Shown here piece after piece: positions 33,099-48,952 of a stretch of DNA of 64,000 nt. The translations under genes were made by a program, and so were the position numbers. Positions within the stretch are counted from its first letter, which is position 1; the number at the start of each line of letters is the position of its first letter. Origin of the DNA: Candidatus Bipolaricaulota bacterium (GTDB lineage: Bacteria > Bipolaricaulota > Bipolaricaulia > M55B111); the NCBI GenBank assembly GCA_018400715.1, contig JAGYME010000006.1, positions 611 through 64,610 on the forward strand, written 5' to 3'. The notes below the pieces were generated by a model that saw only the letters and a program-made list of their open reading frames with translations, did not search any database and was not told where the DNA came from.

Positions 33099-33265
33099 CT
33101 TTTACTGCTCTCTGTTTCTTTTGCCGGTAACAACGAAGGTTTGAAACGAGGTGAAGCTTTGTGAAGCGCTAATTTAATTCTAATTACGGCAACTTCATGA
33201 TGAATGCCGGGTCAAATCACTCCCTGCATTAAGGCGAAAAGATTTTGCTTGTAGAGCAGTCTTTC

Positions 33266-34969
33266 TTATACGGAAATCGCCAGGTCCCCTTCTTCTGCCT
33301 CGAAACTGCCGAGAAGTTGGGCCCGACACGCCTTATCGTATACATCTATGATGACGATTTTACCTTTTGGGTCTTCCGTTTTGGGTATGACTTCGATCAA
33401 TTCACCGGTATCCGGGTCTGAAACGGTCTTGGCAGCGTACAATGAGAAGACCTCATCCACCTTGACTCCTTCTTTCTTGCCGCAATTTCCTGCTATGCCA
33501 CCGAGAATAACGGTATTCTCACCAGCAAGGTTAATAACTTGGCACCTTAACCCTTTAGGCTTCCCTTTGCCGTTTTCACCGCCAGTACTGGGTGACTTTC
33601 CTCGCTGCTCAAGTAGAATCGAAGAAGAATCGTTTAAGACCCCTGTCAGTTCTGCGGCAACAGTGGCTAGGGTCTTTTCCACCGCTTCTCCCACTATACT
33701 GTCGGCAAATTCCTTCGTCCCAAACGTAACCTGGTTGACCCAGGCCGAAGGGCTGGTTCCGGAGCTCACAGAAAAGTTCTTGCTTGCCACGACGTTCCAC
33801 GATGAATCAAGCAGTTTTACGCTGTAACTTCCGGATGTTAATGAGGGCGAGGGGTTCCAGTTCCACGTTGCACAGTTGTTTGAAGGGGATGTCGACTGGA
33901 ACAACAAGGGCGGAGTTATGGAAAACCCCCCGGAATCGAAAAACTGGACAGTAAAGGTGGACGGCGGAGTGGGGTCCAAGTAACCTACGGTGACGATCTC
34001 TCCCGGAGCGTAGACGTTTTTATCCGCCCTGAACCCACCTGTGCATACGCTAGTGCTTACCTGAGATATAGAATTGATCATCGCTCCTACATTGAACGAC
34101 GCGCTCGTCTGTCCTTCCGCTTTTCCCGTAGCTGAACCCCCGGAGAGTATCTCCCCGGTGTAGGCACTTATCACCCGATAGGTCATATTCACTCCCACGG
34201 TGGCCCCAGTAACCGTCAAAAAACCCAGACTTATTCTGGACTTCCTTATGTCAATACCTGTAACGCTCCCAGCAATTATGGCATCCGCTCCTATCGGGGA
34301 TGAGGCCATTGCCAGATCTGAATTGTTCGATGGGTTGAGTCTTTGCTCGAACAGAACCCTTTCGATCTCTTGCCTTTCCAGAACGTGAAATCCACTATTC
34401 ACCAACTTCTCGATTATCATATCAGCCAAACCATGGCTGACGTTGGCAAAGCCCGTGTTGCTTCTGTCCTCAAAGCTCACGACGGCAACGGTTAGGTCCC
34501 TAGCCGAGGATCCGGCGGCCGGTTGAGCGTTCACAACAGTTTGCGTCAAACTATTATTATCTTCGTTCGTTTCAGCTACTTTGTCGAAGGGGTCATCCAC
34601 AACAGCCTTCAACTGGTTCTCACCTGGCTGGACAGACCAGGAAAAAGTTACCGTATCAGTTTCTCCAGCGTCCAGACCAAAAGCTATCGGCTTGTGGTCT
34701 ACCCGATCGCCATTTACGTAGAGTCGGACGTAGAAGCGATCGGTATCATCCGCACCTTGATTTAACACTTCCACACTAACTTCTACCCGATCACCTGGTG
34801 AAGGATTACGGGGAGAGATATTCAGATTCGACACCACGAGGTCAGCTCCATCTGCAGAAAGTCCAATATGACTACAAATTAGGGTTATGAGAAGTGCAAG
34901 TGAAAGCATAATCAATACCGGCAGTGGAGATATATTATCTGCATTTTTTCGCCGTAAGATCTTGCCCAT
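33266..34969 (-). CDS. secreted CARDB-domain plus CsgG-like-domain protein
   Basis: Signal/TM at the N-terminus. CARDB-like aa 42-141 (nt 34547-34846: DLVVSNLNISPRNPSPGDRVEVSVEVLNQG...NEDNN). CsgG/COG1462-like aa ~158-300 (nt 34070-34498: TVAVVSFEDRSNTGF..GLADMIIEKLVNSGFHVLERQEIERVLFEQRL..GADAIIAGSVTG). Ser/Thr-rich beta domains follow. Confidence 0.6.
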   Translation of the reverse strand: MGKILRRKNADNISPLPVLIMLSLALLITLICSHIGLSADGADLVVSNLNISPRNPSPGDRVEVSVEVLNQGADDTDRFYVRLYVNGDRVDHKPIAFGLDAGETDTVTFSWSVQPGENQLKAVVDDPFDKVAETNEDNNSLTQTVVNAQPAAGSSARDLTVAVVSFEDRSNTGFANVSHGLADMIIEKLVNSGFHVLERQEIERVLFEQRLNPSNNSDLAMASSPIGADAIIAGSVTGIDIRKSRISLGFLTVTGATVGVNMTYRVISAYTGEILSGGSATGKAEGQTSASFNVGAMINSISQVSTSVCTGGFRADKNVYAPGEIVTVGYLDPTPPSTFTVQFFDSGGFSITPPLLFQSTSPSNNCATWNWNPSPSLTSGSYSVKLLDSSWNVVASKNFSVSSGTSPSAWVNQVTFGTKEFADSIVGEAVEKTLATVAAELTGVLNDSSSILLEQRGKSPSTGGENGKGKPKGLRCQVINLAGENTVILGGIAGNCGKKEGVKVDEVFSLYAAKTVSDPDTGELIEVIPKTEDPKGKIVIIDVYDKACRAQLLGSFEAEEGDLAISV

Positions 34970-35079
34970 GAAATCACCCCTTTCGCGCCAGTCTATTCAT
35001 CAAATGCCTGGATAGAAATTGTCTTGTAAAGATCCTCTGCAAAAACTACCGGGAGGGAAAGCCTCCCGGTAGTTGATAT

Positions 35080-38000
35080 TCAGTAATTTATTTTCAGAAC
35101 CGCCCAATCGACGCTGGAATCGTCCTGGACAGCGATATCGAGTACTTGTTCTGTCTCCATCAGGGATAAGATCGACGGACTCAAGTTCAGGGTGATTACA
35201 TCCGTTTCGCCCAGACCGAGGTAGTCCGACAGTGGTTCGGTCTCCGCCCATCCACCGGCGGATATGACACCGAGCCGCAGCGTATCGTTGCCGCCACCGT
35301 TTTTGACGCGGATCTTCAACTGGGCGGACTCAATGTCACACCCTGGAGCGACGGAGACCGGCAAATGGAACGTGTGAGCCCAATATCGGTCTGGGGTCTC
35401 GTCGTCGCAACCCTTCAACTTGTTGCACCCATCAGGGTTTTCCGGGTAGAAGTAGGTGTTATCTGCAGCGTAGTGATCGTTTACCCAGTCTGTCAGGGCC
35501 TGTCTGGGGTTTGAACCCTCGACCCCGTCAAAGCAGTCTCCGCGTTGACAGACGTGGTACTCCATCGTCTCCGGGCAGGGGCATTCCGGGGGTTGCTGGA
35601 AGACCTTTAGGGCAATTACACATTGCGGACAGACCACGTCGCCACACAGGGCATTTAGATGTAAGTGGTAATGGTGTTCCCCGGGTGGAGGGGTAAAATC
35701 AGCCGGCAGGCTAAATCCGGAGTGGGGGCTAGGCAGCACGGAGCCCGGGTCAACCGGTGTCAGGTTCCAAGAATAGCTTGGTCCAATATCACCGCAACCA
35801 ATACAATCGATACTCGAGTCTACCGTGACCGTCCCCGATAATTCAGGTATTGCGACGCTGTCTTGCGTGCAGGTGCCCGTGCTGGAGTGAGAAGCCCCTG
35901 CGCTATCCTCCCAGGAAAACTCTACAACGTTCCAGTCCCCGCAGTCGCATTCGCCCTTAATTTGGAATTGGACTCTGAAGGGCTCACATTCGTGACCGTC
36001 ACATTCCGGAACGATCTCCAGCATATATGTCCCCGGTTCTTCCAGCAACGTCGCGTCAAACGAGAGTGGACTCATTTGCGAACTTCCCGTCGCGGTTGAA
36101 GCCAAGGTGTCACCATCAGGCCCGTAAAGGGTCCAGAAGTAATAGTCCATACACTCTGGCAACCAGGAAGGCTCGCATTTATAGTATGGAACTACATTCA
36201 CCGGAGGGGTTACCACGGGAGGACTGCCTGGAGTATAAGTGATGTTATTGATAATTACGTCGGGAACGTCGTTGTCGTCACCGTCCTTCCATTTTCCACA
36301 TTTACATTTGTAGTAAGGACCTTCACCAACATAAAATGCCAGGTCTAGTGACCGGTTGCAGTCGTCCGGGCGGAGAAGTTTGTCCTCGACCTCAAACTCA
36401 TCATTCGTAACCGCACCCCAGACGGCGTCACAGTACCGATGGTACTTGCTGGAGGCCCAGCCCCAGCGCAGCTCTGGCTCCTTTATCTCGGGTTTGATAA
36501 TTAACCAGTACTTTTTCCCTTCTTTCTGCTCGAACGGATCGGGGATCTTGTTAATTCTGTACCGATAAAACCTCTTGTGGTTGTAGGAGTCCGCGTCCCC
36601 GGGACATTCATATTCATGGTTGTACCAGTTGAGCCAGCAGCAATCCCCGGCAGCATGGACGTCAAAATCGGTAAATTTGTCTCTCCACAGTATCTCTCCG
36701 GGCTCACAGTCCCCATCGTGTTCGGCGATCATTATTTCAAAACTCTTTATCGTACCAGCGTCGCCCGGGTACTCTTCCTCGATATCGTCAAAGTCTTCCC
36801 ACGAACCCCAGAACTGGATAAACGAGACAGGTCCGGACTCATCACACTCCCAATCGTCGGCCAGCCAGACTTCCTCTCCATCTATTTCGCCGCACTCCAC
36901 GTCCCAGCCGTTCCAGTAGGGCCACATGGGCTGGGTCATCTTGTGTTCGTGGCCTCCATTATGTGGGTAACACTTCCCGCAATAACCGGCTGCGAAGATA
37001 TCCTCGAAGAACTCTGGGTCCATGGCAGCGGAGTATATTTCCGCCTCGTCGATTAGCCCGTCAAAACTATCAGCGGGTACTTCGTGGTCCCTGCCAAACC
37101 AGAGTGCACCTGAATTGTCAAGGTCTCCAACTCCATTAAGGGCAAGCATCTGCGTATCGCCATTAACCCGTAGATGCATCTTTCCCTCGTGTCTGTTTAC
37201 AATTACCCCAATGAAGTTCCACCTATCGGGATCGACCGTGAGGTCCGAAGTATACCAGCCGTTCAAATACACCTTGAAAAGTCCGCTATCTGGTTTAGCT
37301 CTAAGTGCGTAACCTTCTCCATCATCCCGTTTATCGACGAAGGTTCCGAAGTTCTCGGTCGGCTTGATCCAGGTGTCAATGGAAAAATCTTCTTTACCAA
37401 AGTTTAGCTCTGGATGGCTTGAAACCCAGGCGAAGTTTTCCTCGTAACCGGTCCCAGCCGATGGGTTCTCACCCACGTCTATGGCGCCGCTTTTGATCCC
37501 GTCCCCGAGTCTGGGCGCGCTCCCGTCCTTAGTCCACCAATCGTAGTGGCCGTCTTTTATTTCCTGATGACAGTGGTTAAACGGCCACCAGGCAACAAGG
37601 TCCGTCCACTCGGGACTTGGGTCGGGTGGGCTGATATCTATACATTTGCATCTGACTTTCAGGGTAAATACAAACCTATCGCACGCTTGACCGTCACAAT
37701 GGGGTACCAGCGTTACTTCATACTCCCCCGGACCATTTAGGTCCCCCGGATCCAGGGTAATTGTTCCCGTCACGTGATCATCGGAACTGCTAAAGCCCTG
37801 TTGTACCCCCATACCTTCTATTTTCCAGTTATAATAAACTGGATCCTGACAAGATCCCTCGCATACGTAACTGGGATCTATATCCACCGGTAGATCTTCC
37901 CCGTCAACCGCGATCGTACCTCCAGCGGTTACTGGATTATTGTCAATTAGGACTTCCTCCCATTCCTCACAACTACAGGGCCGAATTCCGACAACCGTAG

Positions 38001-41000
38001 CACAATTAGTAGCAGATACCTCTCCCACTTCGCTAATGGCCTGCAAGGTCGCGCAATTCCTGTTCTCTCCCTCGGAAATGACGTGAGCCTCAAATGTCAA
38101 GGTAGCGGTATCGCCAGGGGACAGAGGATCGGCAAAAAGGAAGGTAATTTCCGGTGGAGTACCTCCCACCTCAAAAGACAGGTCAGCGTCGGCGCTGTCA
38201 GGTAGGTATTCGAGACAGTCCGGCAGCTCGTCTTTGACGTTAATTCCCTTTAACACGCACGTTCCCGTATTGTGAACCTTGATCAAGAACTTTACTTCCG
38301 TACATACGCTCGCCTCAATCTGGTCAACAAATTCACCGGTCTCCGTATCCTGCACGAGCTTTTCCAGACTTACTCCGGGACTACATCCAGCCTCTATTGC
38401 CAATCGGAAGTCAAATTTCTCACACACTTGATCATCACAATTGGCCACCAGAGTTACCTCGTATTCACCCGGACCGTCAAAGTCATTCTGGTCCAGTTCA
38501 AAAGTCTGGCTGTAAAGGGGTCCGTCCGATGATGAAAATCCTCCCGTCCCGGAGACGTACCATTCGTAATTTACCCCTTGACTGCAGTCACCTTGACATC
38601 CAAATTCAGCCTCGATCTCCAGGGGCAAATCGTTCGTGGTTACGTTAACTACCTCCCCGATATTAACGGTGTTTTCCTCAACCTGGATATCCGGATTATC
38701 GTCGTCATCGCTGTCAGGCCAATCACCACACATGCAACCACTACAGCATAGATAGAGATTGGCGTAGTCGACACTGGTATCGTCCTGAATGTATACGTCC
38801 AGATAGCTATTGTCCGTCATATAACTCAATAGGCTGTTAGTGCCTGGAGAAAATGATGAAGATAAGTCCGTTCCTTGAGCTGGGAGCTGACCCAGGTCGA
38901 GGTGAATGACGTTAGTCGTTCCCGTGGATGTATAGTCGCTCCAGAGCTTGTACCCGACACCGCCAGGAGAGTTATCACTGAAAGTCCCAGTCCACAGGTG
39001 CAACCAATCGTTGTGCGTTTCGAAAGGAAGTGCCTTCACCTTGATCTCGAGCCAGGCCTGAGTTATTTCTTCACAGTTAGGCCACTTGAAGGTGTGGACA
39101 AATTTTCTGTTATTATAGGGGAAATCAAACCCCGCGTCTCCCTGGTCTCCGAAATTAATTTCTGAGAGAAGAGCGTCTCTGGGGTTAACCGAGGGAACGT
39201 CCTGGTCATCGTCGAAGTCGTCGTCCTCTCCCGCCAACTTTTCAATTGAGACTTCATCTGGTCCACAATTGGATATTTCCTCCGTTAGAGTCAGCTTAAA
39301 TTGATATTGACCACACTTATGGTCATCGCAATGGGGTAGAAGGGTTATCCCGTAACTACCGGGGCCAGTCAAATCACTGGAGGCCAAATTAAGGTTTTGG
39401 GCTGACTGGCCTGAAACCAGAAGGTCACCATCTACAAACAAATCGAAGTCGGGATCACAACCGCCTTCACACTGATAACTGGGGACTATCTCTATCGGAT
39501 AATCACCTGTAGAGACGGTAACCGTTCCTCCAGCGGATACCATACTGCCCTCGACTGTTACGTCGGGGACCCCGTCGTTATCCCCATCAATCCAGCGTCC
39601 GCAGCTGCACTGATCCTGCTGACAGCCCTCGGGTACCGCGATAGTCTCATCATTATTGCTCTCGTCAATCTCGTTTATGATATGTTGAGGGTCGACGATG
39701 ACATCGATGGGTGAACCCAATATATTGGGTTGCTGGAGCACCTTAGTAGTACAGGAACCTGCTGCTAGCCCAGAAATGGATTCCATCCAGCTGGTGCCCG
39801 ACCCAGACTGCCCAACTATCGGAGATGCCTTAAAGAAAAATTCACCGTCCACGTCCGCGGTGCCGACGTTACAGATCGTGACCTTGACGTTACACTTCTC
39901 ATCAAATTCGACGCTATCCACTACCACGTCTGGTTTTCCCTCTGTATACTCGACTAACAAGTGACAGGAGGGACATTCCTCTCTACCACAGGTTGCATGT
40001 AAGGTGGCCGTGACCTCGTCAAACGAACTGGACGAGAAACTGCACTCGTTTCCGTCCCCACTTCCCCATGTCCCTATTCCCGGAGTGGTGACCTCCCAGC
40101 TGTAGCTTAGCAGAGAAGCAGGACAGTTAATACAGTTGAGATCTGACGTTACCGAAATTTCATGGGCTGCCTGAGCGTGTGTTACCTGCAGCGTGTCTCC
40201 ACAATTTCCCGTCCACGTAGAAGGTTGGTCTCCCGGACTTGAATAATACTCTACCTCAACTCCTCCCCATTGACCACATCGACACCCCTGACCCCCTTCC
40301 TTTCCAACTACCGTCGCACAATCCGTCTCGTGGAGTACTTCTCCGCCGGATTCAGCCCGAACCTTCACGCAGTTTTCGTGTCTACCTTCTGACACCACGT
40401 GGGCGGAGAAAGTCAGTCTGATCAAACCGCCGGGCTGAAGAGTATCCGGAATATACCAGGTCGGATTTGCGGATGAGCCGCCCTGCTCGTAGTTACTACT
40501 CCCGGAGACGTATTCGAGCCCCGGAGGGAGCGAGTCGCTAACAAAGATCTCACTTATCGGGCTATTCCCGGTGTTCATAATGGCTACACGGAATTTAGCG
40601 TTCTGACAGACCTCCTTTTCGACTCGATCACCAACGGTATCCCCGCCTTCCTGGACTATCTTTTTGCTAACGACCATCCCCGGCTCCCCGCTCTGTTTTA
40701 CCCTTAGCTGAAATTGAAATCTCGAACAATCCTTCCCATTACAGTGAGCGACGACGGTGAGGGTATAGCTACCTGGCCCGGCGAGGCTGGAGGGAGATAA
40801 AGTAAACGGACTAGAGACGTGACTATCAGATGAACCAAATCCATCTGGGCCACCAACGAACCAGCTATAGTTTGGCGAACAGTCTCCCACACAGGTGTAG
40901 TCAGGGTCGACCGTTACGGGGAGTTCGTCCTCTGATAGAGTTAAGGACCCCCTATTATTCACGGAAGAGCCATTGACAGAGATATCTGGAGTCCCATTAC

Positions 41001-41883
41001 CGTCCCTGTCGCCCCACTTACCGCACTCGCACTTGGCCCCTTCTGTGACCGCAAAGCTACACCTGGCGGCTGCTATGGGTCGGTCGCCTTTTTTTGCAGC
41101 TTCTTCGCCCTGATAGACTGTTAGACGCAGAGTCCTCTGTCCATCTGGCTCCTCGATGGTACCACCCACGCTTATAGATCTAGAGGATAATTCTCCAAGG
41201 TGCTCTGTTATATAACGACAGCCGGCTTTCACGGACTTTTCTCTGGCGAAACCGAAGTGTATATGGACCGGGTCGCCGACACGATAAGTAGCATTCGAAC
41301 CCCCCTCCAGACATCCCTTATCAGGACACAAGAATAAGGCGGGATTACTTCCGGTCGTTCCACTGATACCCAATCTTTCACGAGGGAACGTCCGCCGCAA
41401 CAAGATCTTGGTCGTACCGTCGGGCATCTCTTCAGTCATCTCGACGTAAGCGGATCTAGGACTCTCCTGGCGATAATTTACTAATACTTTTAAACAAAGT
41501 TCTCTTTCCCATAGGGTGCTTCCCATCCTCAACGGGGAAAAACGTCGATCAAATCGCCGTTTGTCGGCCATGCCCTCAATTATAAGTGCCTCGGGCTTCC
41601 CGGGAACTTCCAAGTCAAAAGTTTTTGATTCACCTGGTTTTAGTTCAACTTTCCCCAGACGTTTTACCTCTTCAAAACCATCCCCTCCCAAGACGAGGGT
41701 AGATAGGTTCAACGTACGCCGGTCACAGATGTTCGTTATCTCGACGGCCGCCTGGCTATCACCACCGGTTTGGGCTTCTACGACCCCGGAAACCAACGAA
41801 AGCAACATCACTGTAATAATTAAACTGAGGATAACCCAACCACGAGAAGAGCTTTGGAAACCATAAAACTTAACAGAATACAT
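35080..41883 (-). CDS. giant secreted multidomain protein (2267 aa): seven Cys-rich modules, two DUF11-like domains, CARDB-like, LamG-like, two copies of a C-terminal-type module
   Basis: Signal peptide (..LLSLVSGVVEAQ). DUF11-like domains at about nt 40300-40680 and 37990-38385 (LPPGLEYVSGS / LPDCLEYLPDS). CARDB-like at about 39625-39935. LamG-like at about 37020-37560 (DFSIDTWIKP..LRVNG..DEAEIYS). Trp/acidic-rich module at about 36320-37010 (WLADDWECDESGPVSFIQFWGSW). Confidence 0.85.
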   Translation of the reverse strand: MYSVKFYGFQSSSRGWVILSLIITVMLLSLVSGVVEAQTGGDSQAAVEITNICDRRTLNLSTLVLGGDGFEEVKRLGKVELKPGESKTFDLEVPGKPEALIIEGMADKRRFDRRFSPLRMGSTLWERELCLKVLVNYRQESPRSAYVEMTEEMPDGTTKILLRRTFPRERLGISGTTGSNPALFLCPDKGCLEGGSNATYRVGDPVHIHFGFAREKSVKAGCRYITEHLGELSSRSISVGGTIEEPDGQRTLRLTVYQGEEAAKKGDRPIAAARCSFAVTEGAKCECGKWGDRDGNGTPDISVNGSSVNNRGSLTLSEDELPVTVDPDYTCVGDCSPNYSWFVGGPDGFGSSDSHVSSPFTLSPSSLAGPGSYTLTVVAHCNGKDCSRFQFQLRVKQSGEPGMVVSKKIVQEGGDTVGDRVEKEVCQNAKFRVAIMNTGNSPISEIFVSDSLPPGLEYVSGSSNYEQGGSSANPTWYIPDTLQPGGLIRLTFSAHVVSEGRHENCVKVRAESGGEVLHETDCATVVGKEGGQGCRCGQWGGVEVEYYSSPGDQPSTWTGNCGDTLQVTHAQAAHEISVTSDLNCINCPASLLSYSWEVTTPGIGTWGSGDGNECSFSSSSFDEVTATLHATCGREECPSCHLLVEYTEGKPDVVVDSVEFDEKCNVKVTICNVGTADVDGEFFFKASPIVGQSGSGTSWMESISGLAAGSCTTKVLQQPNILGSPIDVIVDPQHIINEIDESNNDETIAVPEGCQQDQCSCGRWIDGDNDGVPDVTVEGSMVSAGGTVTVSTGDYPIEIVPSYQCEGGCDPDFDLFVDGDLLVSGQSAQNLNLASSDLTGPGSYGITLLPHCDDHKCGQYQFKLTLTEEISNCGPDEVSIEKLAGEDDDFDDDQDVPSVNPRDALLSEINFGDQGDAGFDFPYNNRKFVHTFKWPNCEEITQAWLEIKVKALPFETHNDWLHLWTGTFSDNSPGGVGYKLWSDYTSTGTTNVIHLDLGQLPAQGTDLSSSFSPGTNSLLSYMTDNSYLDVYIQDDTSVDYANLYLCCSGCMCGDWPDSDDDDNPDIQVEENTVNIGEVVNVTTNDLPLEIEAEFGCQGDCSQGVNYEWYVSGTGGFSSSDGPLYSQTFELDQNDFDGPGEYEVTLVANCDDQVCEKFDFRLAIEAGCSPGVSLEKLVQDTETGEFVDQIEASVCTEVKFLIKVHNTGTCVLKGINVKDELPDCLEYLPDSADADLSFEVGGTPPEITFLFADPLSPGDTATLTFEAHVISEGENRNCATLQAISEVGEVSATNCATVVGIRPCSCEEWEEVLIDNNPVTAGGTIAVDGEDLPVDIDPSYVCEGSCQDPVYYNWKIEGMGVQQGFSSSDDHVTGTITLDPGDLNGPGEYEVTLVPHCDGQACDRFVFTLKVRCKCIDISPPDPSPEWTDLVAWWPFNHCHQEIKDGHYDWWTKDGSAPRLGDGIKSGAIDVGENPSAGTGYEENFAWVSSHPELNFGKEDFSIDTWIKPTENFGTFVDKRDDGEGYALRAKPDSGLFKVYLNGWYTSDLTVDPDRWNFIGVIVNRHEGKMHLRVNGDTQMLALNGVGDLDNSGALWFGRDHEVPADSFDGLIDEAEIYSAAMDPEFFEDIFAAGYCGKCYPHNGGHEHKMTQPMWPYWNGWDVECGEIDGEEVWLADDWECDESGPVSFIQFWGSWEDFDDIEEEYPGDAGTIKSFEIMIAEHDGDCEPGEILWRDKFTDFDVHAAGDCCWLNWYNHEYECPGDADSYNHKRFYRYRINKIPDPFEQKEGKKYWLIIKPEIKEPELRWGWASSKYHRYCDAVWGAVTNDEFEVEDKLLRPDDCNRSLDLAFYVGEGPYYKCKCGKWKDGDDNDVPDVIINNITYTPGSPPVVTPPVNVVPYYKCEPSWLPECMDYYFWTLYGPDGDTLASTATGSSQMSPLSFDATLLEEPGTYMLEIVPECDGHECEPFRVQFQIKGECDCGDWNVVEFSWEDSAGASHSSTGTCTQDSVAIPELSGTVTVDSSIDCIGCGDIGPSYSWNLTPVDPGSVLPSPHSGFSLPADFTPPPGEHHYHLHLNALCGDVVCPQCVIALKVFQQPPECPCPETMEYHVCQRGDCFDGVEGSNPRQALTDWVNDHYAADNTYFYPENPDGCNKLKGCDDETPDRYWAHTFHLPVSVAPGCDIESAQLKIRVKNGGGNDTLRLGVISAGGWAETEPLSDYLGLGETDVITLNLSPSILSLMETEQVLDIAVQDDSSVDWAVLKINY
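35083..35512 (-). repeat. 'NPRxAL...HTF...QDDxSVD(Y/W)A' module, C-terminal copy
   Basis: SNPRQALTDWVNDHY..WAHTFHLPVSVAPGCDIESAQLKIRVKN..LDIAVQDDSSVDWAVLKINY. Confidence 0.55.
35599..35949 (-). repeat. Cys-rich module copy 7 (divergent)
   Basis: CDCGDWNVVEFSW...IDCIGC...SYSWNL...HLHLNALCGDVVCPQCVIALKVF. Confidence 0.6.
35956..36306 (-). repeat. Cys-rich module copy 6
   Basis: CKCGKWKDGDDNDVPD...YKCEPSWLPEC...EPGTYMLEIVPECDGHECEPFRVQFQIK. Confidence 0.7.
37651..37977 (-). repeat. Cys-rich module copy 5
   Basis: CSCEEWEEVLIDNNP...YVCEGSC...GPGEYEVTLVPHCDGQACDRFVFTLKVR. Confidence 0.7.
38392..38736 (-). repeat. Cys-rich module copy 4
   Basis: CMCGDWPDSDDDDNPD...FGCQGDC...GPGEYEVTLVANCDDQVCEKFDFRLAIE. 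Confidence 0.7.
38749..39190 (-). repeat. 'NPRxAL...HTF...QDDxSVD(Y/W)A' module, internal copy
   Basis: VNPRDALLSEINFG..FVHTFKWPNCEEITQAWLEIKVKAL..LDVYIQDDTSVDYANLYL. Confidence 0.55.
39286..39609 (-). repeat. Cys-rich module copy 3
   Basis: CSCGRWIDGDNDGVPD...YQCEGGC...GPGSYGITLLPHCDDHKCGQYQFKLTL. Confidence 0.7.
39946..40284 (-). repeat. Cys-rich module copy 2 (divergent, lacks the acidic motif)
   Basis: CRCGQWGGVEVEY...LNCINC...SYSWEV...ATLHATCGREECPSCHLLVEY. Confidence 0.6.
40693..41031 (-). repeat. Cys-rich module copy 1 (protein-level repeat)
   Basis: CECGKWGDRDGNGTPD...YTCVGDC...GPGSYTLTVVAHCNGKDCSRFQFQLRVKQ. Confidence 0.7.
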
Positions 41884-42421
41884 AGAGATTACCTCCTTAG
41901 GATTTCAAAACCCCGTACACGAATTTCTGCCAGTTTTCGTGACGAACGGCCAAACTTTAACTCCCAGTTTACATAGATAAACGGCTAATAATAATGCCGT
42001 CACCGGTCCTATCGGAGCACCCAGAGACAGACACTTTTCCAACGTATCCATGCCCCGGTCTGCTTCTTTTCACCAAACTTGCCGGGGCAAATTAATTCCT
42101 TCTTCGCTAAATATGCCGTTATCAAAGGTAATTATCGTCGACAAATTTGTTTGGCGGACGGTAAGATGAGAAAAGAGTTCTTCCAAGGCTGGAAAGTCAG
42201 GAGCAAGAGTAAATGATACGAAGAAACGAACAAGGCAGCTTGCGATCTGTGGCAAATATTATTTAGATCAGCAAATATTAAATCAATACAATACTTTTAT
42301 ACAGTAAATAAAAAATCTTGTCAAATCTGGGGTACGTCGATGATCACGTACAGGTCGTAGTTGAAAAACAAGAAAGATGGCATAAAACAACATATACCCA
42401 AAATCATTGCAGATGTCAATC

Positions 42422-43753
42422 CTAACAACCTTCGACCACGAAATTGGGGAGGGTGAAACACTCGACCAGAGAGGCAATTACGTTCTCCCGCCCCACCCTT
42501 GTGTACAGGCCGTTTATCTCCTGTTTATACAAAAAGAGCCCTATCAGATAGCCGAACTTCTCGAATCTAAGCTCTCCGTCCTTGATGTAGATGAACTCCT
42601 TCTCCGGGACGTCACAGAACTCCTGAGCGATGTAGTTTTCTCCCTGGACTTCTTCGACCTTCTTTTTCCACTCGTCCGGACGGTAGTCCCTCCCCACGTA
42701 GACGCCGTGACCGGCAAACTTGTCGAAGGGTTTGAGCAGAAACATATCCTGCTCCTCTATCAGCTTATTCCGTAACGCCTCGTTCCCCCGGTGAAATATC
42801 CGGCTTAGCGGGAAGTAATTGTTGACGAAGTCGGTTTCGTCCTCAGTTAGGTGATCCGTGTAGTCCGGTTCCTGGAGGATGGCAAATAGGGACTTGTTGT
42901 GAACTATCTGAGAGGAAAACCCACCGGCTACACAAACGTTACCGTCCCTGTAGGCGTTAAGGAACGGCTCGACCTCCTCGTAGCGTTCGACGATCTTCTG
43001 GGTCGTCGCCCGACGATAGACCAGGTCGATGCGACCCTCATCCGACAGTAAGTTCTTCCCGTCGTAGTCTAGCTCCCTGGGGTCACGGATTAGCGTCCGA
43101 TACCCGCGATCCACAAACCTCTTCTTGTACTCCCTGAACTCGCTATTTATCCCTTCCCCCTGGAAATCAACGATAGCCACCGTCTCCGGGTCATCTTCCC
43201 CCCCGATGAATTCGTGATAAATTTCGACGGTCGTGTCGATCCAGTTTTCCATGGGCGTGTAGTAGTGAATATCGCAGTCCTCAGGGATAAACTCCAGCAC
43301 CTTTGACCTATAGAGGGCGTTTTGCAGCACGCGGGCCTCGTTCATTCCCGCGGACCCGTCCGTGTTGAACTCACAGAACTTCAACCCACCGTCGTAGTCG
43401 TAGAAAATGTCAAAGCGGGCCATGGGAAAAAAGTTATCGTACCCGGGGTCGGCGAGGATTAGATCCTCGGTCCTCTCCGAAAAGGGGAATGCCCGGCGGA
43501 AGCTCTCGTCCGCTCGAAACCTTTCTATGGTCTTGTTCAAAATAGCAGTCAACTGTGCGAGGACCTCTTCTATCCAGTCCAGATCTTCCGGGGTAAAGAA
43601 GACGGGCTGGTAAAGGAAATCTACAGGCTGGCCCAGGTACCTGGCGGATGAGTTCTCGACCACGTCCTTTACCTCCCGATAATCACGGATGAACTCATCG
43701 GGACGAGAACGGATAAAGTCGCGATACTTCCTTAGCAGTTCTTCGGCGTCCAT
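42422..43753 (-). CDS. ATP-grasp-type ligase, glutathionylspermidine-synthase-like
   Basis: 443 aa. ARFDIFYDYDGGLKFCEFNTDGSAGMNE resembles the pre-ATP-grasp/ATP-grasp junction of GSP-synthase-like and circularly permuted ATP-grasp families. Motif-level call only. Confidence 0.4.
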   Translation of the reverse strand: MDAEELLRKYRDFIRSRPDEFIRDYREVKDVVENSSARYLGQPVDFLYQPVFFTPEDLDWIEEVLAQLTAILNKTIERFRADESFRRAFPFSERTEDLILADPGYDNFFPMARFDIFYDYDGGLKFCEFNTDGSAGMNEARVLQNALYRSKVLEFIPEDCDIHYYTPMENWIDTTVEIYHEFIGGEDDPETVAIVDFQGEGINSEFREYKKRFVDRGYRTLIRDPRELDYDGKNLLSDEGRIDLVYRRATTQKIVERYEEVEPFLNAYRDGNVCVAGGFSSQIVHNKSLFAILQEPDYTDHLTEDETDFVNNYFPLSRIFHRGNEALRNKLIEEQDMFLLKPFDKFAGHGVYVGRDYRPDEWKKKVEEVQGENYIAQEFCDVPEKEFIYIKDGELRFEKFGYLIGLFLYKQEINGLYTRVGRENVIASLVECFTLPNFVVEGC

Positions 43754-44115
43754 CTATTCCCCCTCGTGTTCGAAAAATTCATACGAGTAACCCTTTTGAC
43801 TTTTAGTTTAATCCCTCAAGGGAGGATTCTCAACTTTGCATGTGCACGTTATCCCCTTCTATAGGGCGATATAGGGGCAATCCCCTTGTAGTTCGCCCGC
43901 CTGTCCAGCTAACCGCTCTTGTTATTCACCTCGATAAACTTTATAGTTTAATCGTTTGCAATATAGTAACTTAAGATAGTATTTAGTAATTAGTAATCTG
44001 GGAAGCTTTAGTTAACAGGCTGCACCCGGTGCTTCGTGGCTTGAAGATACCACTCTTCGCCTCCTTGAGGTTATCAGGACAGTCAAATCAAGGCAGACAA
44101 GGAGGAGTTTTTTAT

Positions 44116-44316
44116 ATGTCCACAGGCACAGTCAAATGGTTCAACGATGACAAAGGATTTGGTTTCATCGAGCAAGACGACGGAGAAGACGCTTTTGCTC
44201 ACTACTCGGAAATCATTGGCGATGGTTACAAATCCTTGACAGAAGGTCAGGAAGTAACGTTCGACCTTGAAGAAGGCGAAAAAGGACCCAAGGCACTGAA
44301 CGTAGAGGTCGTATAA
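44116..44316 (+). CDS. csp: cold-shock protein (CspA family)
   Basis: [33 protein letters not shown]... carries the RNP1 (KGFGFI) and RNP2-like (DAFAHY) motifs. ATG 44116 follows AAGGAGGAG. The track ORF start 44029 is an upstream extension. Confidence 0.93.
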
Positions 44317-44356
44317 AGGTACATTACCTGAAATTTACTCAGGAATGATAATAATG

Positions 44357-44389
44357 GGCCACAGGTAAGTAACTTACTGTGGCCTTTTT
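44357..44389 (+). terminator. intrinsic terminator after csp
   Basis: GGCCACAG(G)TAAGT-a-ACTTACTGTGGCC, a 13-bp stem with one bulged G, followed by TTTTT. Confidence 0.7.
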
Positions 44390-45044
44390 CTTTAGGAGAT
44401 ATACCATTAGTACTCCAACTGCCGGTCGCCGGGAGCTAGTCAACACGCTGACTCACGCAACCGGCGTTCTCGCCAGCATCGCCGGCCTGATCATGCTGTT
44501 GTTGAGAGCAGGACGTACCGGGAACGTATGGATGTTTCTCGGTTTCTCCCTTTACGGGGCGAGTTCCATCCTCCTATTCATCTCTTCCACTCTTTATCAC
44601 GCAATTAGGGTCGGTACAGCCAAGACGTTCTTCCGGTATATCGATCATGGCTCGATATACCTGCTTATTGCCGGTACCTATACGCCCTTTGCCCTGATCA
44701 GCCTGTCCGGCTCCTGGGGCTGGTCCCTGTTTGGAACGATCTGGGGTCTGGCGCTATCGGGGATACTATTCAGCAGTTTTCTTGGCAATCGCTTTCCAAA
44801 ATTTGCCACCGGGACCTACGTACTCATGGGCTGGCTGTCGCTGATCGCCCTCCCCGGCCTGATAAGCAATATGAGCTTGATGGGCATATCCCTTCTGATC
44901 ATCGGGGGCGCAGTGTACACGGCGGGGATAGCCTTCTACGCCTGGAAGGCACTGCCCTACAATCACGCCATATGGCACCTCTTCGTCCTAGCTGGGGGAG
45001 TCTGTCATTACTTCACCGTCTACTACTTCGTCGTGCCCCACTAA
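44379..45044 (+). CDS. hemolysin III / PAQR family membrane protein
   Basis: 7-TM protein with N..TH..G (VNTLTHATG), S..YH and H..V..G..HY motifs. The GTG start at 44379 lies inside the csp terminator stem; in-frame ATT 44406, 6 nt after AGGAGA, is an alternative. Confidence 0.8.
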   Translation: MAFFFRRYTISTPTAGRRELVNTLTHATGVLASIAGLIMLLLRAGRTGNVWMFLGFSLYGASSILLFISSTLYHAIRVGTAKTFFRYIDHGSIYLLIAGTYTPFALISLSGSWGWSLFGTIWGLALSGILFSSFLGNRFPKFATGTYVLMGWLSLIALPGLISNMSLMGISLLIIGGAVYTAGIAFYAWKALPYNHAIWHLFVLAGGVCHYFTVYYFVVPH

Positions 45045-45205
45045 CGCTAAAAATCCTGCCAGAGCAGTTTCCCTGCAAGGAACTTCATTACAAATTTACG
45101 GACGTACTTCAACCGAACTTAATCCCCGATTAAGGTCACTGAACTACGCTCCAAACGGCCAACCAAATTGGAAAGAAATATCACGAAGTTCTGAAATCCG
45201 CGGGC

Positions 45206-45616
45206 TTGAAGGAGGGTCAACGGGTCCTGGAAATTGGATGCGGCCCGGGCTTCTTTACAGTTCCCGCGGCGGAGATAGTCGGGAGCGAGGGGAGCGTTGA
45301 CGCGATCGACATCAACCCGGTCACCGTGAACTACGTAATGAAAAAGGTGGAAAATAGTTCTATAGATAACGTTACGGTCGGTCAAGCCGACGCGGCAAAA
45401 ACCGGGTTCCCCGCCGAAGAGTTTGATCTGATCTTTGTATTCGGTCTCGCCAGGTCAAAGGGCGGGGCTCTGGACCAAATATGGAAGGAGGCAAATCGAG
45501 TGCTAGAGCCGGATGGTACCCTATCCGTAGAGGGCCGGGTCAATCCGCCTGGGGATCTGTTTAAAAGGGCTGGCGGGGCGGGGAGAATTGAGAAGTTCCT
45601 CAAAGTCAACCCTTGA
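45206..45616 (+). CDS. class I SAM-dependent methyltransferase, short or possibly 5'-truncated
   Basis: Motif I VLEIGCGPG lies only 8 aa after the TTG start. The in-frame upstream stretch from 45143 (..KKYHEVLKSAGL) looks like methyltransferase N-terminus but has no ATG/GTG/TTG. Confidence 0.6.
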   Translation: MKEGQRVLEIGCGPGFFTVPAAEIVGSEGSVDAIDINPVTVNYVMKKVENSSIDNVTVGQADAAKTGFPAEEFDLIFVFGLARSKGGALDQIWKEANRVLEPDGTLSVEGRVNPPGDLFKRAGGAGRIEKFLKVNP

Positions 45617-45632
45617 CTGAAGGGTGAAAAAA

Positions 45633-45671
45633 GGTGTCCAGGCCAGCTAATCACTGCCGGCCATGGACACC
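45633..45671. terminator. hairpin between convergent genes (candidate bidirectional terminator)
   Basis: GGTGTCCA-GGCC...GGCC-a-TGGACACC (8+4 bp, one bulge), between the methyltransferase stop (45616) and the Ala-rich gene stop (45704). Confidence 0.45.
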
Positions 45672-45703
45672 CTGATTAACTTAAAGGTCAAACGTCTCCT
45701 CGT

Positions 45704-48568
45704 TTAATCTTCGTGATCGTTCGTATGAGTTTCTCCCGGGGGTACAATATGAAATTCGATTGAGCCTCCTCTTCTTGAAACGCTTAAGTTCACGTACAAA
45801 TTGGCAACAACGCACTCACGTCTGTCAAATATTTTGTAATGGACCTGGTAGGTCCCAGGGGTGTTCGGAAACGACCCCACCAGCCTGGCCGAATTCTTAT
45901 TTAAGTCCATTGAGAAACTGACACCCTGAGGCAGCTCAGAACTGACCAGATTGGCCTCTATGGCCCCATGTGAAGTAAGTTCCCTTCTGATTTCCGTCGG
46001 TATGGACATGGTCTTGTATACGCTCGAACCACCCTGTATTCCTGAAATATTCCACCTCAGAACCTGTGGGTAGGGACAAGTGGACTCGGAGGCCTGGCAG
46101 CGGGGCAGGTTGACCGTGCTGGACGAGCTGGCCCGTTTTCCGTCGTAGTCAGTTACCTGTGCGGTCAAGGTGACCTCTCCTCCCCCCGGTATATCTAGGC
46201 TTACAGAACGCGAGCCGCTGGAAGGCAAGTTTTGTAGCAGGCGAGAAAAGCCACTCGGCCCCTTTAGCGTTAGAGTCACAGTTCGCGGCAGCTGTCCTCC
46301 GTAAGAGTTCCAGGTCAGCGTGAGGTAATGGCTCGTTTCCTCTTTACATACCTGTGATACTTCCGCTTTCGTTTCGACGCTGATCCTCTCCACCGTTTCC
46401 TGCTTCCGGGTTGCCTGACCAGTCACCCTTACTTCCATGCAGGGGTGATCCAGGTCTATCGTCGTCTGATGTGATCCAGTTTCGGAAGGTGTGTATAGCA
46501 CGGATATAGTTTCGGAGTCACCGGAGTAAAGTTCGTAGGAAGACGGATAGGCGAAAAAGTGGGGTGAGGTCTCCGAAATCGATCCGGTGAGGACACCCGC
46601 CCCGGTATTTTCGACCGTGAACGATCGACTCAGACTCTCGCCAACTTGAGTTGAGCCAAAGTTAAGCGAAGTCGGTTCAACTAGGCATCCGGGTTGTGGG
46701 TGTGGTTCGATATCCACACATAACTGCTCGAGACAGTCAGGATCGATGAACTCATCCGTCGAGGTTTCAATCTTGGCAATCGTGTCGACCGAGGCGGTCG
46801 CACTGGTTGCTGCCCTCGTTACGGCGCTTGTAGAAGCGAGTGCGTGTGACCTGGCATCAGCAGCTGCTTCGGCGGCTGCGGAGGCCCTGGTTAGCGCGTC
46901 CGCACTGGCGGTTGCGTAGGCGTTCGCTTCAGTTGTCGCCCTAGCCATTGCGGTTGCCCAGGCAGCCACGTCAGCCTCCACGTCAGCTATAACGAGTGCT
47001 TTCGCAAACGCAGTTGCATATGCCTGTGCCTGTGCATCGGCGGCCGTTCTTGCTGAAGCAACTGCCTCCGCCAGGGCCGCGGCAGTTGCTTCAGCCGCAG
47101 CGTGTGTATTGGTGTAGACGCTTGCTTCAGCGCTAGCAGCAGAGTACGCCGAGGCAACAGCCTGAGCGGTAGCCGTTACAGCCGTATTGATCTCAACGTT
47201 AACCTCCGCATGTGCTTCAGCAAGAGCAGATGCCGCTGCATATGCGTTTGCCTGGGCATCGGCTTCGGCTTTCGCCGTAGCCGCGAAAGCGCTAACTACG
47301 CCTTCGAGGTCACCGTTTTTACCTGCCCGTTCAGCTCTTTGAGCTGCAGCCTGAGCGTCGGCCGCCGCGTTGGCCGCTGCCTGGGCATAGGAATTCGACT
47401 CCGCCACTGCTTCAGCCATTGCACTAGCAGCTGCTTCAGCATGGGCCATCGCATTCGCTGAGGCCTGTGAGGACGCGCTTGCCCGGGATTCTGCCCGGGA
47501 GACAGCCTCTGCTAACGCCGTTGCCAGGGCCGAGGCTTCAGATCTCGCCGTCGCCAAGGCACTGCTGGATGCACTAGCTGCTGCTTCGGCCCGTGAATAT
47601 GCGGTGGAGACCGCCTCGGCCATCGCCTCAGCCTCCGCCTCCGCTTCTGCTCTCGCCTGGGCGATACCTTCAGCTGACGCCTCCGCCTGGGCACTTGCAT
47701 CGGCGGCCGCTTCCGCCTCGGCGCGGGCCCTGGCCATAGCATTCGCGGCTGCCTCGGCACGGGCTTCCGCCGAAGACTCAGCTTGAGCAACGGCTTCTGC
47801 GATTGCTTCTGCCGACGCGCTTGCGCTTGCCGCGGCCTCGACGATGGCATTTATCGTCCCTGTGATCTCCGTCGTTACCGAACCACAAGGAACTTCTGTT
47901 TCTACAGTTTCATGATATTCTTCTGCTTTGGACCGAGCGCGCGCTATTGCTGTTGACGCAGCCTGAGCGTCCGATCTCGCCCGTGTATACGCTCTGGAAA
48001 TGGCCGAGGCCGACGCCTCCGCTGAGGCTTGAGCCAGAGAAATATCCTCGACGCTTACCTCCGCCCTGGCCCTGGCGGCAGAGGCAGCTTCCGCGCTAGC
48101 TGAAGTAGATGCATTTTCTTGTGCTGTTTGTCTGGCTTCAGCGCGGGCTATCGCGGAGGCTTCGCTGCGCGCCTCTGATATCGCCTGAACGACTGCAGAG
48201 GCATGAGCGCTTGCATCCGCCGCCACCTCGACAAGGGCCTGCATCTCTGCAAGTGAATTAGACTCAGCCAGAGCAGCAGCGGACGCAGCAGAACTTGCTT
48301 CTGCGGACGCGTTTTGAGCAATTGACTCTATCGCTTTTACCTGCCGCCCTACTGCTGATCTCGCGGAATCAGCCGCCTTCGCTGTCGCCTGGGCCTCGGA
48401 GTATGCCTGTGAGGCCGCTTGAGCTGAACTCTTAGCCTCCTGGACTAACTGATCGATAACATCGGATTGGTCTGCTGCCAAGCCGGTAATTATCGAAGTA
48501 CCAGGTAGACCAAAAATTAGTGAAAGTAACAAAACAACTAATACTGAGATACGAAATTTTCTTACCAT
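45704..48568 (-). CDS. secreted protein with about 550-aa (Ala-X)n region and C-terminal Ig-like/ASH-type beta domains
   Basis: Signal peptide MVRKFRISVLVVLLLSLIFG. Long Ala/Glu/Ser/Arg/Gln region. C-terminal PTSLNFGSTQVGESLSRSFTVENTGAGVLTGSI..ISVLYTPSETG is typical of ASH/choice-of-anchor-D-type domains. Confidence 0.8.
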   Translation of the reverse strand: MVRKFRISVLVVLLLSLIFGLPGTSIITGLAADQSDVIDQLVQEAKSSAQAASQAYSEAQATAKAADSARSAVGRQVKAIESIAQNASAEASSAASAAALAESNSLAEMQALVEVAADASAHASAVVQAISEARSEASAIARAEARQTAQENASTSASAEAASAARARAEVSVEDISLAQASAEASASAISRAYTRARSDAQAASTAIARARSKAEEYHETVETEVPCGSVTTEITGTINAIVEAAASASASAEAIAEAVAQAESSAEARAEAAANAMARARAEAEAAADASAQAEASAEGIAQARAEAEAEAEAMAEAVSTAYSRAEAAASASSSALATARSEASALATALAEAVSRAESRASASSQASANAMAHAEAAASAMAEAVAESNSYAQAAANAAADAQAAAQRAERAGKNGDLEGVVSAFAATAKAEADAQANAYAAASALAEAHAEVNVEINTAVTATAQAVASAYSAASAEASVYTNTHAAAEATAAALAEAVASARTAADAQAQAYATAFAKALVIADVEADVAAWATAMARATTEANAYATASADALTRASAAAEAAADARSHALASTSAVTRAATSATASVDTIAKIETSTDEFIDPDCLEQLCVDIEPHPQPGCLVEPTSLNFGSTQVGESLSRSFTVENTGAGVLTGSISETSPHFFAYPSSYELYSGDSETISVLYTPSETGSHQTTIDLDHPCMEVRVTGQATRKQETVERISVETKAEVSQVCKEETSHYLTLTWNSYGGQLPRTVTLTLKGPSGFSRLLQNLPSSGSRSVSLDIPGGGEVTLTAQVTDYDGKRASSSSTVNLPRCQASESTCPYPQVLRWNISGIQGGSSVYKTMSIPTEIRRELTSHGAIEANLVSSELPQGVSFSMDLNKNSARLVGSFPNTPGTYQVHYKIFDRRECVVANLYVNLSVSRRGGSIEFHIVPPGETHTNDHED
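46790..48450 (-). repeat. low-complexity (Ala-X)n coding repeat (approximate bounds)
   Basis: In one 83-residue stretch counted by hand (ASAEAIAEAVAQAE...AEAAASA), 38 of 42 odd positions are Ala, in a single register. The DNA shows GCN every 6 nt. Two short non-repeat interruptions (..EEYHETVETEVPCGS.., ..RAGKNGDLEG..). Confidence 0.8.
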
Positions 48569-48952
48569 GATTTACCTCCTGAATGGTGAAAGTTGTCCGG
48601 ATCACTTCTCGGTTACTTTGGCACTATCACCTCCGTGAAACCACGAAATTGGGAATCACCCACACCAGATCACTGGAAAGCTATGGGCCGATCGATGAAC
48701 TGATTTGAGAAATTTAATGGCACGGAAGGAAGAAGATTGTCAATAAGGGCGCGATTATTAATTTTTCGTAGTGCTCAATAAATTCCTAAATACAAAATTC
48801 CCTATATATATATTATACACGAAACCGAGTGGTTAATCTTTATTTTCCTATATTTCTTCAGTCTATCCCTGGAGATAGAAGATGAGTCTTGAAGTATGAG
48901 GGGGAGGAGTGAGGCGGACGTCATCCAGACATCCGCAAGGGCAACCTCAGCC

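Follow-up and report, generated by a model that had tools for sequence, protein, structure and literature searches.

A stretch of 64,000 nucleotides from the genome of a Candidatus Bipolaricaulota bacterium (assembly GCA_018400715.1, contig JAGYME010000006.1), hereafter referred to as the window, carries on its minus strand a gene (45704..48568) encoding a protein of 954 residues in which alanine alternates with other residues over three long segments. This (Ala-X)n domain is preceded by a signal peptide and followed by a Cys-rich junction and three beta-rich (Ig-like) domains. The gene is present as a single copy in its genome, a metagenome-assembled genome (MAG) of 2.19 Mb distributed over 176 contigs. 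The Bipolaricaulota (also Acetothermia or OP1) form a widespread phylum without cultured members, whose envelope may be that of a simple Thermotoga-like diderm; the first closed genome of the phylum revealed no surface adhesins (PMC6092417). We describe here the organisation of this protein, whose alternation had been noticed in a first-pass annotation of the window, its relatives in the phylum, and the fold that we consider likely for its repeat domain, a single-chain rod of three antiparallel helices.

General organisation of the protein

All the features of the protein lie on the minus strand. The signal peptide (aa 1-32, MVRKFRISVLVVLLLSLIFGLPGTSIITGLA followed by AD; 48473..48568) displays n-, h- and c-regions visible in the sequence; it is of the Sec type, without a lipobox Cys or a twin arginine, and is probably cut by signal peptidase I, as its sequence suggests, with analogous cleavage sites (after LA and before Q) in the relatives of the family. 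This agrees with the secreted nature proposed in the first-pass annotation. Pfam and the sequence itself gave no sign of an anchor in the rod protein, whether a transmembrane segment, lipobox, SLH domain or sorting tail.

The repeat domain is made of three helical segments, as delineated by AlphaFold2, separated by two turns. Helix 1 (aa 34-221; 47906..48469) corresponds to a predicted helix at positions 2-189 of the AlphaFold2 domain model, and its alanines occupy the odd register from aa 45 onwards. It is followed by turn 1 (aa 222-235, VETEVPCGSVTTEI; 47864..47905), the presumed top of the rod, in which Cys228 and Val231 are invariant, as is Gly237 just beyond it; AlphaFold2 places there a small beta-hairpin (aa 223-232, strands 191-194 and 197-200 of the domain model) around Cys228. 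Helix 2 (aa 236-417; 47318..47863), defined by AlphaFold2, by the odd register of its alanines and by the spacing of its hydrophobic residues, shows hydrophobic triplets (M316/V320/Y324, L348/L352/V356 and M384/V388) recurring 32 residues apart. Turn 2 (aa 418-420; 47309..47317), the presumed bottom of the rod, lies in the Gly-rich AGKNGDLEG (aa 416-424) where the Ala register switches, so that helix 3 (aa 421-607; 46748..47308) has its alanines in the even register; it closes with the conserved S593-V594...IETS...FIDP. The junction (aa 608-630, DPDCLEQLCVDIEPHPQPGC; 46679..46747) contains the invariant Cys612 and Cys617, and Cys628, about 12 residues past the second of them, matches a recurrent CP of the family consensus.

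The C-terminal part is beta-rich. Ig-like domain 1 (aa 631-706; 46451..46678) was assigned through Pfam to the HYDIN/VesB/ASH or choice-of-anchor-D type: over aa 631-705, PF22544 scores 33.9 bits (cut-off of 25.5) and ASH (PF15780) 30.7 bits (cut-off of 27), the NF012200 model (choice-of-anchor D) being just short of its cut-off of 45 with 43.2 bits. The second domain (aa 730-825; 46094..46381) rests on AlphaFold2 strands of low to moderate confidence, on the alignment A1 and on matches in relatives, which keep the motif ...VCxxExSHxLTxxW...GG... The third (aa 830-935; 45764..46081) is confidently predicted by AlphaFold2 (pLDDT, the predicted local distance difference test, of ~90), is found in one to five copies in relatives and has the motif CP...W.FGE...SS.LP.G..F.LD...G.L.G..P...G.Y.V...L.D...C. 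Foldseek related the C-terminal part to tandem Ig-like arrays (HYDIN, SbsB, SraP and complement MG types) with very low template modelling (TM) scores. The ASH/choice-of-anchor-D domain previously announced downstream of the repeats is confirmed, PF22544 and ASH being above their cut-offs, and the presence of other Ig-like domains is supported.

The alanine alternation

Alanine occupies 53 of the 86 odd positions of segment 1 (aa 45-216, 172 aa), 74 of the 88 odd positions of segment 2 (aa 241-415, 175 aa) and 64 of the 86 even positions of segment 3 (aa 427-598, 172 aa). Of these 519 residues in all, 43% are Ala, 13% Ser and 9% Glu, while Gly occurs twice and Pro is absent; the last 356 residues of the protein contain 11 Ala in total. 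The period-2 Fourier peak reaches 10.8-15.7 and every other peak is at most 1.2, i.e. more than tenfold weaker. In aa 241-415, the parity excess of Ala is 65, to be compared with a mean of 5.3 and a maximum of 27 in 10,000 shuffles. Ala counts, Fourier peak and shuffles thus agree on the reality of the Ala-X periodicity of this secreted protein; the earlier hand count of 38 Ala among 42 positions was reproduced exactly in the 83-aa stretch starting at aa 251, and the strings quoted with it are present in the protein.

The extent of the tract needs a more cautious description. The claim of about 550 residues in register holds for the span over which Ala-X is found, but this span is divided into three segments of 172, 175 and 172 aa: a 24-residue non-repeat turn including Cys228 (aa 217-240) breaks the tract, and within aa 416-426 the alanines pass from odd to even positions. 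The first reading had overlooked this switch of register, both turns and the conserved cysteines. The composition of the X positions (E 45, S 41, A 31, R 25, Q 20, T 15, N 12, L 12, I 11, D 11, Y 9, V 8) is roughly as described at first, except that Ala and Leu are also common there. Where the Ala register is not filled by Ala, S, V or T take its place almost everywhere.

Metagenome bins frequently contain mis-assembled repetitive proteins, and the source here is a MAG of 176 contigs, so the tract could be a mis-assembled low-complexity region or a non-coding region left open by chance. We consider this hardly credible. Tandem Repeats Finder retrieved from the gene only three trivial arrays, none longer than 34 nucleotides (nt), and the four Ala codons are used almost equally (GCG 59, GCC 55, GCA 55, GCT 53). 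An orthologue from another genome of the same family (L002) is of similar length (951 aa), shares 65% identity and aligns without any gap over aa 1-724. The architecture is moreover common to dozens of relatives, with conservation of the turns, cysteines and domains. Identity to L002 amounts to 83% at the positions of the Ala register, 60% at the X positions and 53% in the C-terminal domains, and where the two proteins differ in the Ala register, Ala is exchanged with S, T or V. These patterns indicate that the period of two is kept by selection acting on the protein. Because selection acts on the protein and the DNA is not repeated, the 6-nt periodicity of the DNA and the Arg/Pro-rich shadow ORF (open reading frame) can be seen as by-products: the 1.6-kb periodic tract reported previously stands as a consequence of the Ala-X protein, but the DNA itself holds no real tandem repeats, and the Arg/Pro-rich ORF noted in another frame does exist (47512..47850, minus strand, 112 aa).

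A helical periodicity beneath the alternation

A second periodicity was sought in the hydrophobic residues (I, L, V, M, F, Y and W) of seven family members, i.e. 21 segments, in the band of 3.4-3.75 residues and with parity-preserving shuffles as reference. The spectral peak is located at 3.52-3.58 residues in all 21 segments (3.52-3.56 in 19 of them and 3.58 in two), and 16 of the 21 beat the shuffles (p < 0.05). Pairs of hydrophobic residues are enriched at distances of 4 (1.49x), 28 (1.46x), 32 (1.87x) and 36 (1.70x). The autocorrelation of residue identity, computed with Ala-Ala pairs excluded, peaks at a lag of 32 or 64 in five of five members, the next lags being 14, 46, 78 and 96. A unit of 32 residues equals nine turns at 3.556 residues per turn, or 7+7+7+11, that is three heptads and one hendecad. 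In helix 2, the hydrophobic residues occupy positions 0, 4, 14, 18, 22 and 28 of this unit, and the other seam positions (7, 11, 21 and 25) coincide with the Ala register. Each segment of ~172 residues has 17-28 large hydrophobic residues, about half of the seam positions falling on the Ala register. The seam near 3.5 residues that is expected from a coiled coil is present in the family; the large aliphatic residues that occupy most a/d positions of a canonical Leu zipper are not. The strict two-residue period had been set against heptad or hendecad coiled coils in the first-pass annotation. The period is indeed strict, but a coiled-coil seam (3.52-3.56 residues, with a 32-residue unit) lies beneath it and proceeds by even steps only.

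The helical period of the hydrophobic residues and the three continuous helices given by AlphaFold2 support the very long alpha-helical rod or stalk initially predicted. The alternative raised at that time, a beta-sheet fibril of the EAK16 type, was not supported. In such a silk-like structure, the chain would be drawn out into strands, one face all Ala and the other polar, stacked into fibrils or a sheath; a strict period of two is the natural period of a beta-strand, and AEAEAKAK-type peptides as well as the Ala-Ser tracts of hornet silk are generally known to be able to form beta-sheets. A beta-strand does not, however, explain the hydrophobic period of 3.52-3.56 residues or a 32-residue unit equal to nine helical turns. 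Stretches of 172-290 residues lack the Gly or Pro turns, or the regular turn motif of a beta-solenoid or meander, that folding into sheets would call for (no Pro and two Gly in the 519 residues of the window protein), the X positions are rich in the helix formers E, A, R, Q and L, and AlphaFold2 gives only helix for the rod. Equal segments with coordinated indels, described below, also argue against it, and we regard the beta-sheet reading as very improbable. Among other candidates, a single alpha-helix (SAH) domain was rejected because the region is too poor in charged residues for one, shows a clear hydrophobic seam and is divided into three segments of equal length, and a beta-solenoid because turn motifs are missing.

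A family of (Ala-X)n proteins in the Bipolaricaulota

A search of 5.8 billion protein clusters returned 14 matches, none of which was named by its source, and the best nine share the whole architecture. The repeat domain alone retrieved relatives (E <= 1e-10) in 64 of 184 Bipolaricaulota genomes, spread over 33 of 54 genera (~60%); among the high-quality genomes, 30 of 71 are included. A genome generally has a single such gene, which encodes ~1,040-1,640 aa. We define the members of this family by the succession of a signal peptide, three Ala-X segments of near-equal length, a turn-1 motif ((V/I/L)-(P/Q/A/L/V)-C-x-x-V) with an invariant Cys, a junction (S-V-x(~16)-D/E-x-x-C-x4-C) and Ig-like C-terminal domains, the latter being variable among relatives. 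The window protein displays every one of these features, and they are invariant in the 20-sequence alignment A2. There, the invariant residues other than Ala (Cys228, Val231, Gly237, Ser593, Val594, Cys612 and Cys617) fall in turn 1 and in the junction following segment 3.

Neither Pfam nor NCBIfam has a model covering the repeat domain, and in a sequence search of the PDB all matches were of mere low complexity, the (QA)n tract of TCERG1 among them, with no relative of solved structure. No paper on the (Ala-X)n rod family was found in the literature on Bipolaricaulota and alanine-rich proteins. Two other searches were less informative: a word-indexed protein search with the junction only (aa 540-630) gave one match and is a poor gauge of family size, and an exhaustive search of representatives was swamped by proteins sharing only the choice-of-anchor-D Ig domain, with little on the repeat domain.

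The distribution and the composition of the family present some particularities. In the family of genomes to which the window belongs (f1, 19 genomes), the gene is found in 2 of 19, the other families of the class having it in about half of their genomes; this rarity could represent a true loss or a poor assembly of the region in fragmented MAGs. The short relative P0009, recorded in NCBI, Logan and ENA, shares its signal peptide, N-terminal motif, junction and C-terminal domains with the 1,280-aa proteins L007 and L010, as if recombination between repeats had removed most of the rod. In P0010, P0011, P0013 and P0014, a similar Ala-X domain with a Cys-containing turn and a terminal Cys cluster stands behind an N-terminal GEVED-like domain (motif GE(I/V)EDY, PF20009 being recorded for two of the four), so that beyond the core family the rod module also occurs in other domain contexts. 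The unrelated transglutaminase-like protein P0012 (1,360 aa) contains ~276 residues of register-locked Ala-X composed of AQAEALAK-type octads, which means that long Ala-X tracts have more than one origin.

Coordinated lengths of the three segments

Among 19 full-length members, phylogenetically related to one another, the number of residues between the mature N-terminus and the turn-1 Cys varies in step with half the number between this Cys and the junction (r = 0.988). This covariation spans six classes, of 182.5, 214.5, 228.5, 246.5, ~260 and ~291 residues, and the steps between them (32, 46, 64, ~78 and ~109) are those allowed by 32a + 14b, which are even and keep the phase of the seam. Pairwise comparisons show how these differences are distributed. 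P0005 differs from P0006 and L004 by exactly three 32-aa indels, one per segment, located after aa 67, at 325-335 and at 446-452; these sites mirror each other about Cys197 and Gly388 within ~5 residues, which is what a slab added at one height of an up-down-up bundle would give. Three 32-aa gaps, one per segment, also separate L023 from L020, L022 and L006, and L024 and L018 from L027 and L029; with L033 as the shorter partner, the gap of segment 1 splits into 6 + 26.

These lengths bear on a second helical reading, in which each segment would pair in parallel with the same segment of other chains into dimers or trimers, the turns acting as hinges of a jointed fibre of up to ~80 nm. The helical periodicity fits such an inter-chain assembly equally well, many bacterial surface stalks are generally known as parallel homotrimers, and P0009, with its single segment, cannot make an intramolecular bundle. 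A parallel homo-oligomer needs no equal segments, yet the correlation of 0.988 and the triple 32-aa indels of three independent comparisons reveal them, and the indel sites of P0005 are mirrored about the turns. Moreover, the Cys of turn 1 and the cysteines following helix 3 meet only in a folded-back chain, and the AlphaFold2 confidence pattern ties the N-terminus to turn 2. Pairing between chains is on these grounds unlikely.

Predicted structure and proposed fold

The AlphaFold2 domain model (aa 33-640, 20 sequences) has a mean pLDDT of 70 and a predicted TM-score (pTM) of 0.41. It consists of unbroken helices over aa 34-221, 236-417 and 421-607 (188, 182 and 187 residues), and the full-length model likewise is all helix over aa 34-607, with the last Ig-like domain confident. 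The domain model is most confident (pLDDT of 80-91) where helix 1 begins and to either side of turn 2, parts that come together only in an up-down-up bundle. Foldseek related the domain model only to generic long helical stalks, the best being UmbC1 (8w20_A, E = 6.5e-4, TM of 0.14).

From these models and the sequence patterns, the (Ala-X)n region is in our opinion likely to be a single-chain, antiparallel (up-down-up), three-helix coiled-coil rod. After cleavage of the signal peptide, helix 1 (aa 34-221) would run up to the Cys-containing beta-hairpin turn, helix 2 (aa 236-417) would return down to the Gly-rich turn, and helix 3 (aa 421-607) would rise again and finish beside turn 1. Since this topology puts turn 1 beside the junction, Cys228 is probably engaged in disulfides with Cys612, Cys617 and possibly Cys628. 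With ~185 residues per helix at 1.5 Å per residue, the rod would be ~27-28 nm long, and the longest length class would give a rod of ~44 nm. Alanine at alternate residues would slim each helix on all sides and permit a very close, Alacoil-like packing of the three helices, along a seam that would follow the 32-residue nine-turn unit, with pairs of X positions (often occupied by I, L, V, M, Y or F) and pairs of Ala positions taking turns along it. Changes of length would proceed by the gain or loss of one 32-residue slab in each helix, i.e. ~4.8 nm per step, because equal helix lengths, Ala parity and seam phase must all persist. The three Ig-like domains would be carried at one end of the rod, where helix 3 ends beside turn 1.

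Several observations weigh against this fold, or against parts of it. The pLDDT of the domain model falls to 50-68 in the middle and at the top of the rod, and the full-length prediction (10 sequences) is poor, with a mean pLDDT of 51; the three-helix packing is deduced from pLDDT patterns together with the sequence. In the comparisons of L023 and of L024/L018, the gaps can slide by one repeat unit, so that their equal height is not fixed. A mirror scan of hydrophobic density is centred exactly at the turns for P0005 only and near a turn for L007; its peak is 13-16 residues off in the other members, which fits a half-period alias and is no proof. Finally, P0009 (623 aa) has only ~125 repeat residues and no Cys turn, meaning that the fold is not obligatory for every relative.

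The single-chain three-helix rod could also pack sideways, or switch conformation, and build a sheath, a matrix or an S-layer-like lattice. The period-2 geometry puts Ala all round each helix and therefore gives Ala-rich outer faces suited to the rod-to-rod packing of bee and hornet silks, the gene is present once per genome with a strong Shine-Dalgarno sequence, and honeybee silk, an Ala-rich antiparallel coiled coil of 24.3 nm, forms fibres (PMC12284834). Against this, nothing in the data speaks for abundance or for a lattice, charged and polar residues with a negative net charge dominate the exposed X positions, and the C-terminal Ig-like domains vary between relatives in the manner of adhesins; such an assembly appears decidedly doubtful.

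The three-helix rod would most likely serve in the cell envelope as a rigid stalk or spacer, with a length specific to the lineage, that would either hold the Ig-like domains or be held by them. The surface fibre, sheath or matrix proposed in the first-pass annotation is no more than a possibility: an outer membrane is probable, given the Omp85 protein (76 bits) and the SLH domain encoded in the genome, and the protein may just as well be located in the periplasm as on the cell surface. A bolder proposal, possible but put forward only tentatively, is that (Ala-X)n over a 32-residue unit constitutes an undescribed coiled-coil 'grammar', and that the protein is a single-chain three-helix molecular ruler which, through quantised slabs of ~4.8 nm and a total of ~27-44 nm, sets a distance in the envelope. 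Candidates for this distance are the periplasmic width and the height of a surface layer, and the Ig-like domains would dock at one end.

Comparison with known systems

Honeybee silk is an Ala-rich antiparallel coiled coil forming a 24.3-nm rod, with small core residues and an unusually small superhelical radius (PMC12284834). The silks of bees, ants and hornets (AmelF1-4) resemble the proposed rod in having Ala-rich antiparallel helices of ~200 residues, small core residues and the shape of a long thin rod. They differ from it in being insect proteins made of four separate chains instead of one chain of three helices, and in having ordinary heptads without a strict Ala-X alternation or a 32-residue unit. 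No homology to the AmelF1-4 fibroins was detected, the protein searches having given only the bacterial family and the PDB only low-complexity matches. The Alacoil packing, reportedly described by Gernert et al. in 1995 in ROP and ferritin types, is similar to the proposed rod in its antiparallel helices, recurrent seam Ala and very close spacing, but has Ala at every seventh position over 4-5 turns, in contrast to every second position over ~50 turns of a presumed three-helix bundle in the rod. Spectrin repeats are likewise up-down-up antiparallel three-helix bundles of left-handed coiled coil used as rod elements; they are, however, tandem units of ~106 residues (~5 nm), and the rod family would be one giant bundle with 180-290 residues per helix, without any Pfam spectrin match in the rod protein.

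The stalk of UmbC in the umbrella toxin particles of Streptomyces measures ~300 Å (PMC11062931). UmbC and PrgA of Enterococcus would share with the rod protein a slender antiparallel helical stalk of ~30 nm holding a functional domain at its end, but theirs are two-helix stalks, and the rod protein has no ALF repeats, toxin domain or CAP domain. The ALF ring, twin-arginine translocation (TAT) signal and C-terminal toxin typical of UmbC are absent according to Pfam, NCBIfam and the Sec nature of the signal peptide, and the TM of 0.14 reflects a general shape only. Alternation of Ala with polar or charged residues is also encountered in EAK16, in the AEAEAKAK tract of zuotin and in the (QA)n tract of TCERG1, the latter being the best sequence match in the PDB (E = 3e-8), of purely low-complexity nature. 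These tracts, unlike the rod, extend over 16-76 residues only, use one or two kinds of residue at X and have no 3.55- or 32-residue pattern, turns or conserved cysteines. EAK16 forms beta-sheets, which the evidence on the rod protein does not support, and the X positions of the rod are mixed, without the charge-block pattern of EAK16.

Omp-alpha of Thermotoga and Braun's lipoprotein Lpp, an alanine zipper, are coiled-coil envelope rods of defined length in diderms and assemble as parallel homo-oligomers. The rod protein may be likened to them as a coiled-coil rod of the envelope, in a host whose genome has Omp85 and an SLH domain as Thermotoga does. They are, however, anchored by SLH, lipid or a transmembrane segment, and the rod protein has none of these and ends in Ig-like domains; it cannot be ranked with SLH-anchored S-layer or Omp-alpha proteins, Pfam having found neither SLH nor any other anchor in it.

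The rod protein is thus a member of none of the compared systems. Its closest counterparts are honeybee silk, and also the Alacoil, in principle, an elongated spectrin-type bundle in topology, and UmbC and PrgA in use. The coiled-coil rod is known as a kind; what is unusual is the strict sequence rule and the quantised evolution of length. If the proposed fold is true, a coiled coil can be built with Ala at every second position and such a rod lengthens in exact nine-turn slabs, which would be a natural design rule for thin, rigid and tunable rods, of interest to protein design and silk-like biomaterials. The rod family also represents a first handle on the envelope of the Bipolaricaulota, and a conserved protein present in ~60% of the genera of the phylum is a good target for cryo-electron tomography, proteomics and antibody labelling.

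Genomic context

A Shine-Dalgarno sequence, AGGAGG (48575..48580, minus strand), was read off 6 nt before the ATG and graded strong. The 384-nt spacer upstream (48569-48952) is strikingly AT-rich and holds TTGACA, TGTATAAT-like elements and a TATATATA run. A consensus promoter scan of this upstream region reported no site; because such an AT-rich spacer precedes it, the gene probably has its own promoter. No small Cys-rich ORF was found upstream of the gene, and Rfam gave no matches in the window.

The rod gene adjoins other large exported proteins in the window (32571-48568), including a 2,267-aa protein and a CARDB protein. On the contig of P0005 (L016, 12248-19636), the rod gene likewise stands among very large exported proteins (1,173 aa, 784 aa and an FG-GAP protein); the large neighbours at both loci have few or no Pfam domains. 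No conserved partner gene emerged from the comparison of the window, P0005 and P0001 loci. On the P0005 contig, a membrane-anchored TlpA/ResA-like thioredoxin (L016, 11639-12232; motif WASTCPYC) begins 3 nt past the stop of P0005, a position that would suit disulfide formation in the rod protein. It has no counterpart in the window, and the P0001 locus gave only a faint thioredoxin-like match.

Homologues from class-mates are carried by records named Candidatus Bipolaricaulota or Acetothermia. This naming, together with the Omp85 protein of the genome, led to the rejection of an archaeal origin of the genome. The window also contains a PurP-type gene (30632-31744, minus strand; DUF1246 + DUF1297), which is typically archaeal and may represent a lateral acquisition or a trait of the phylum.

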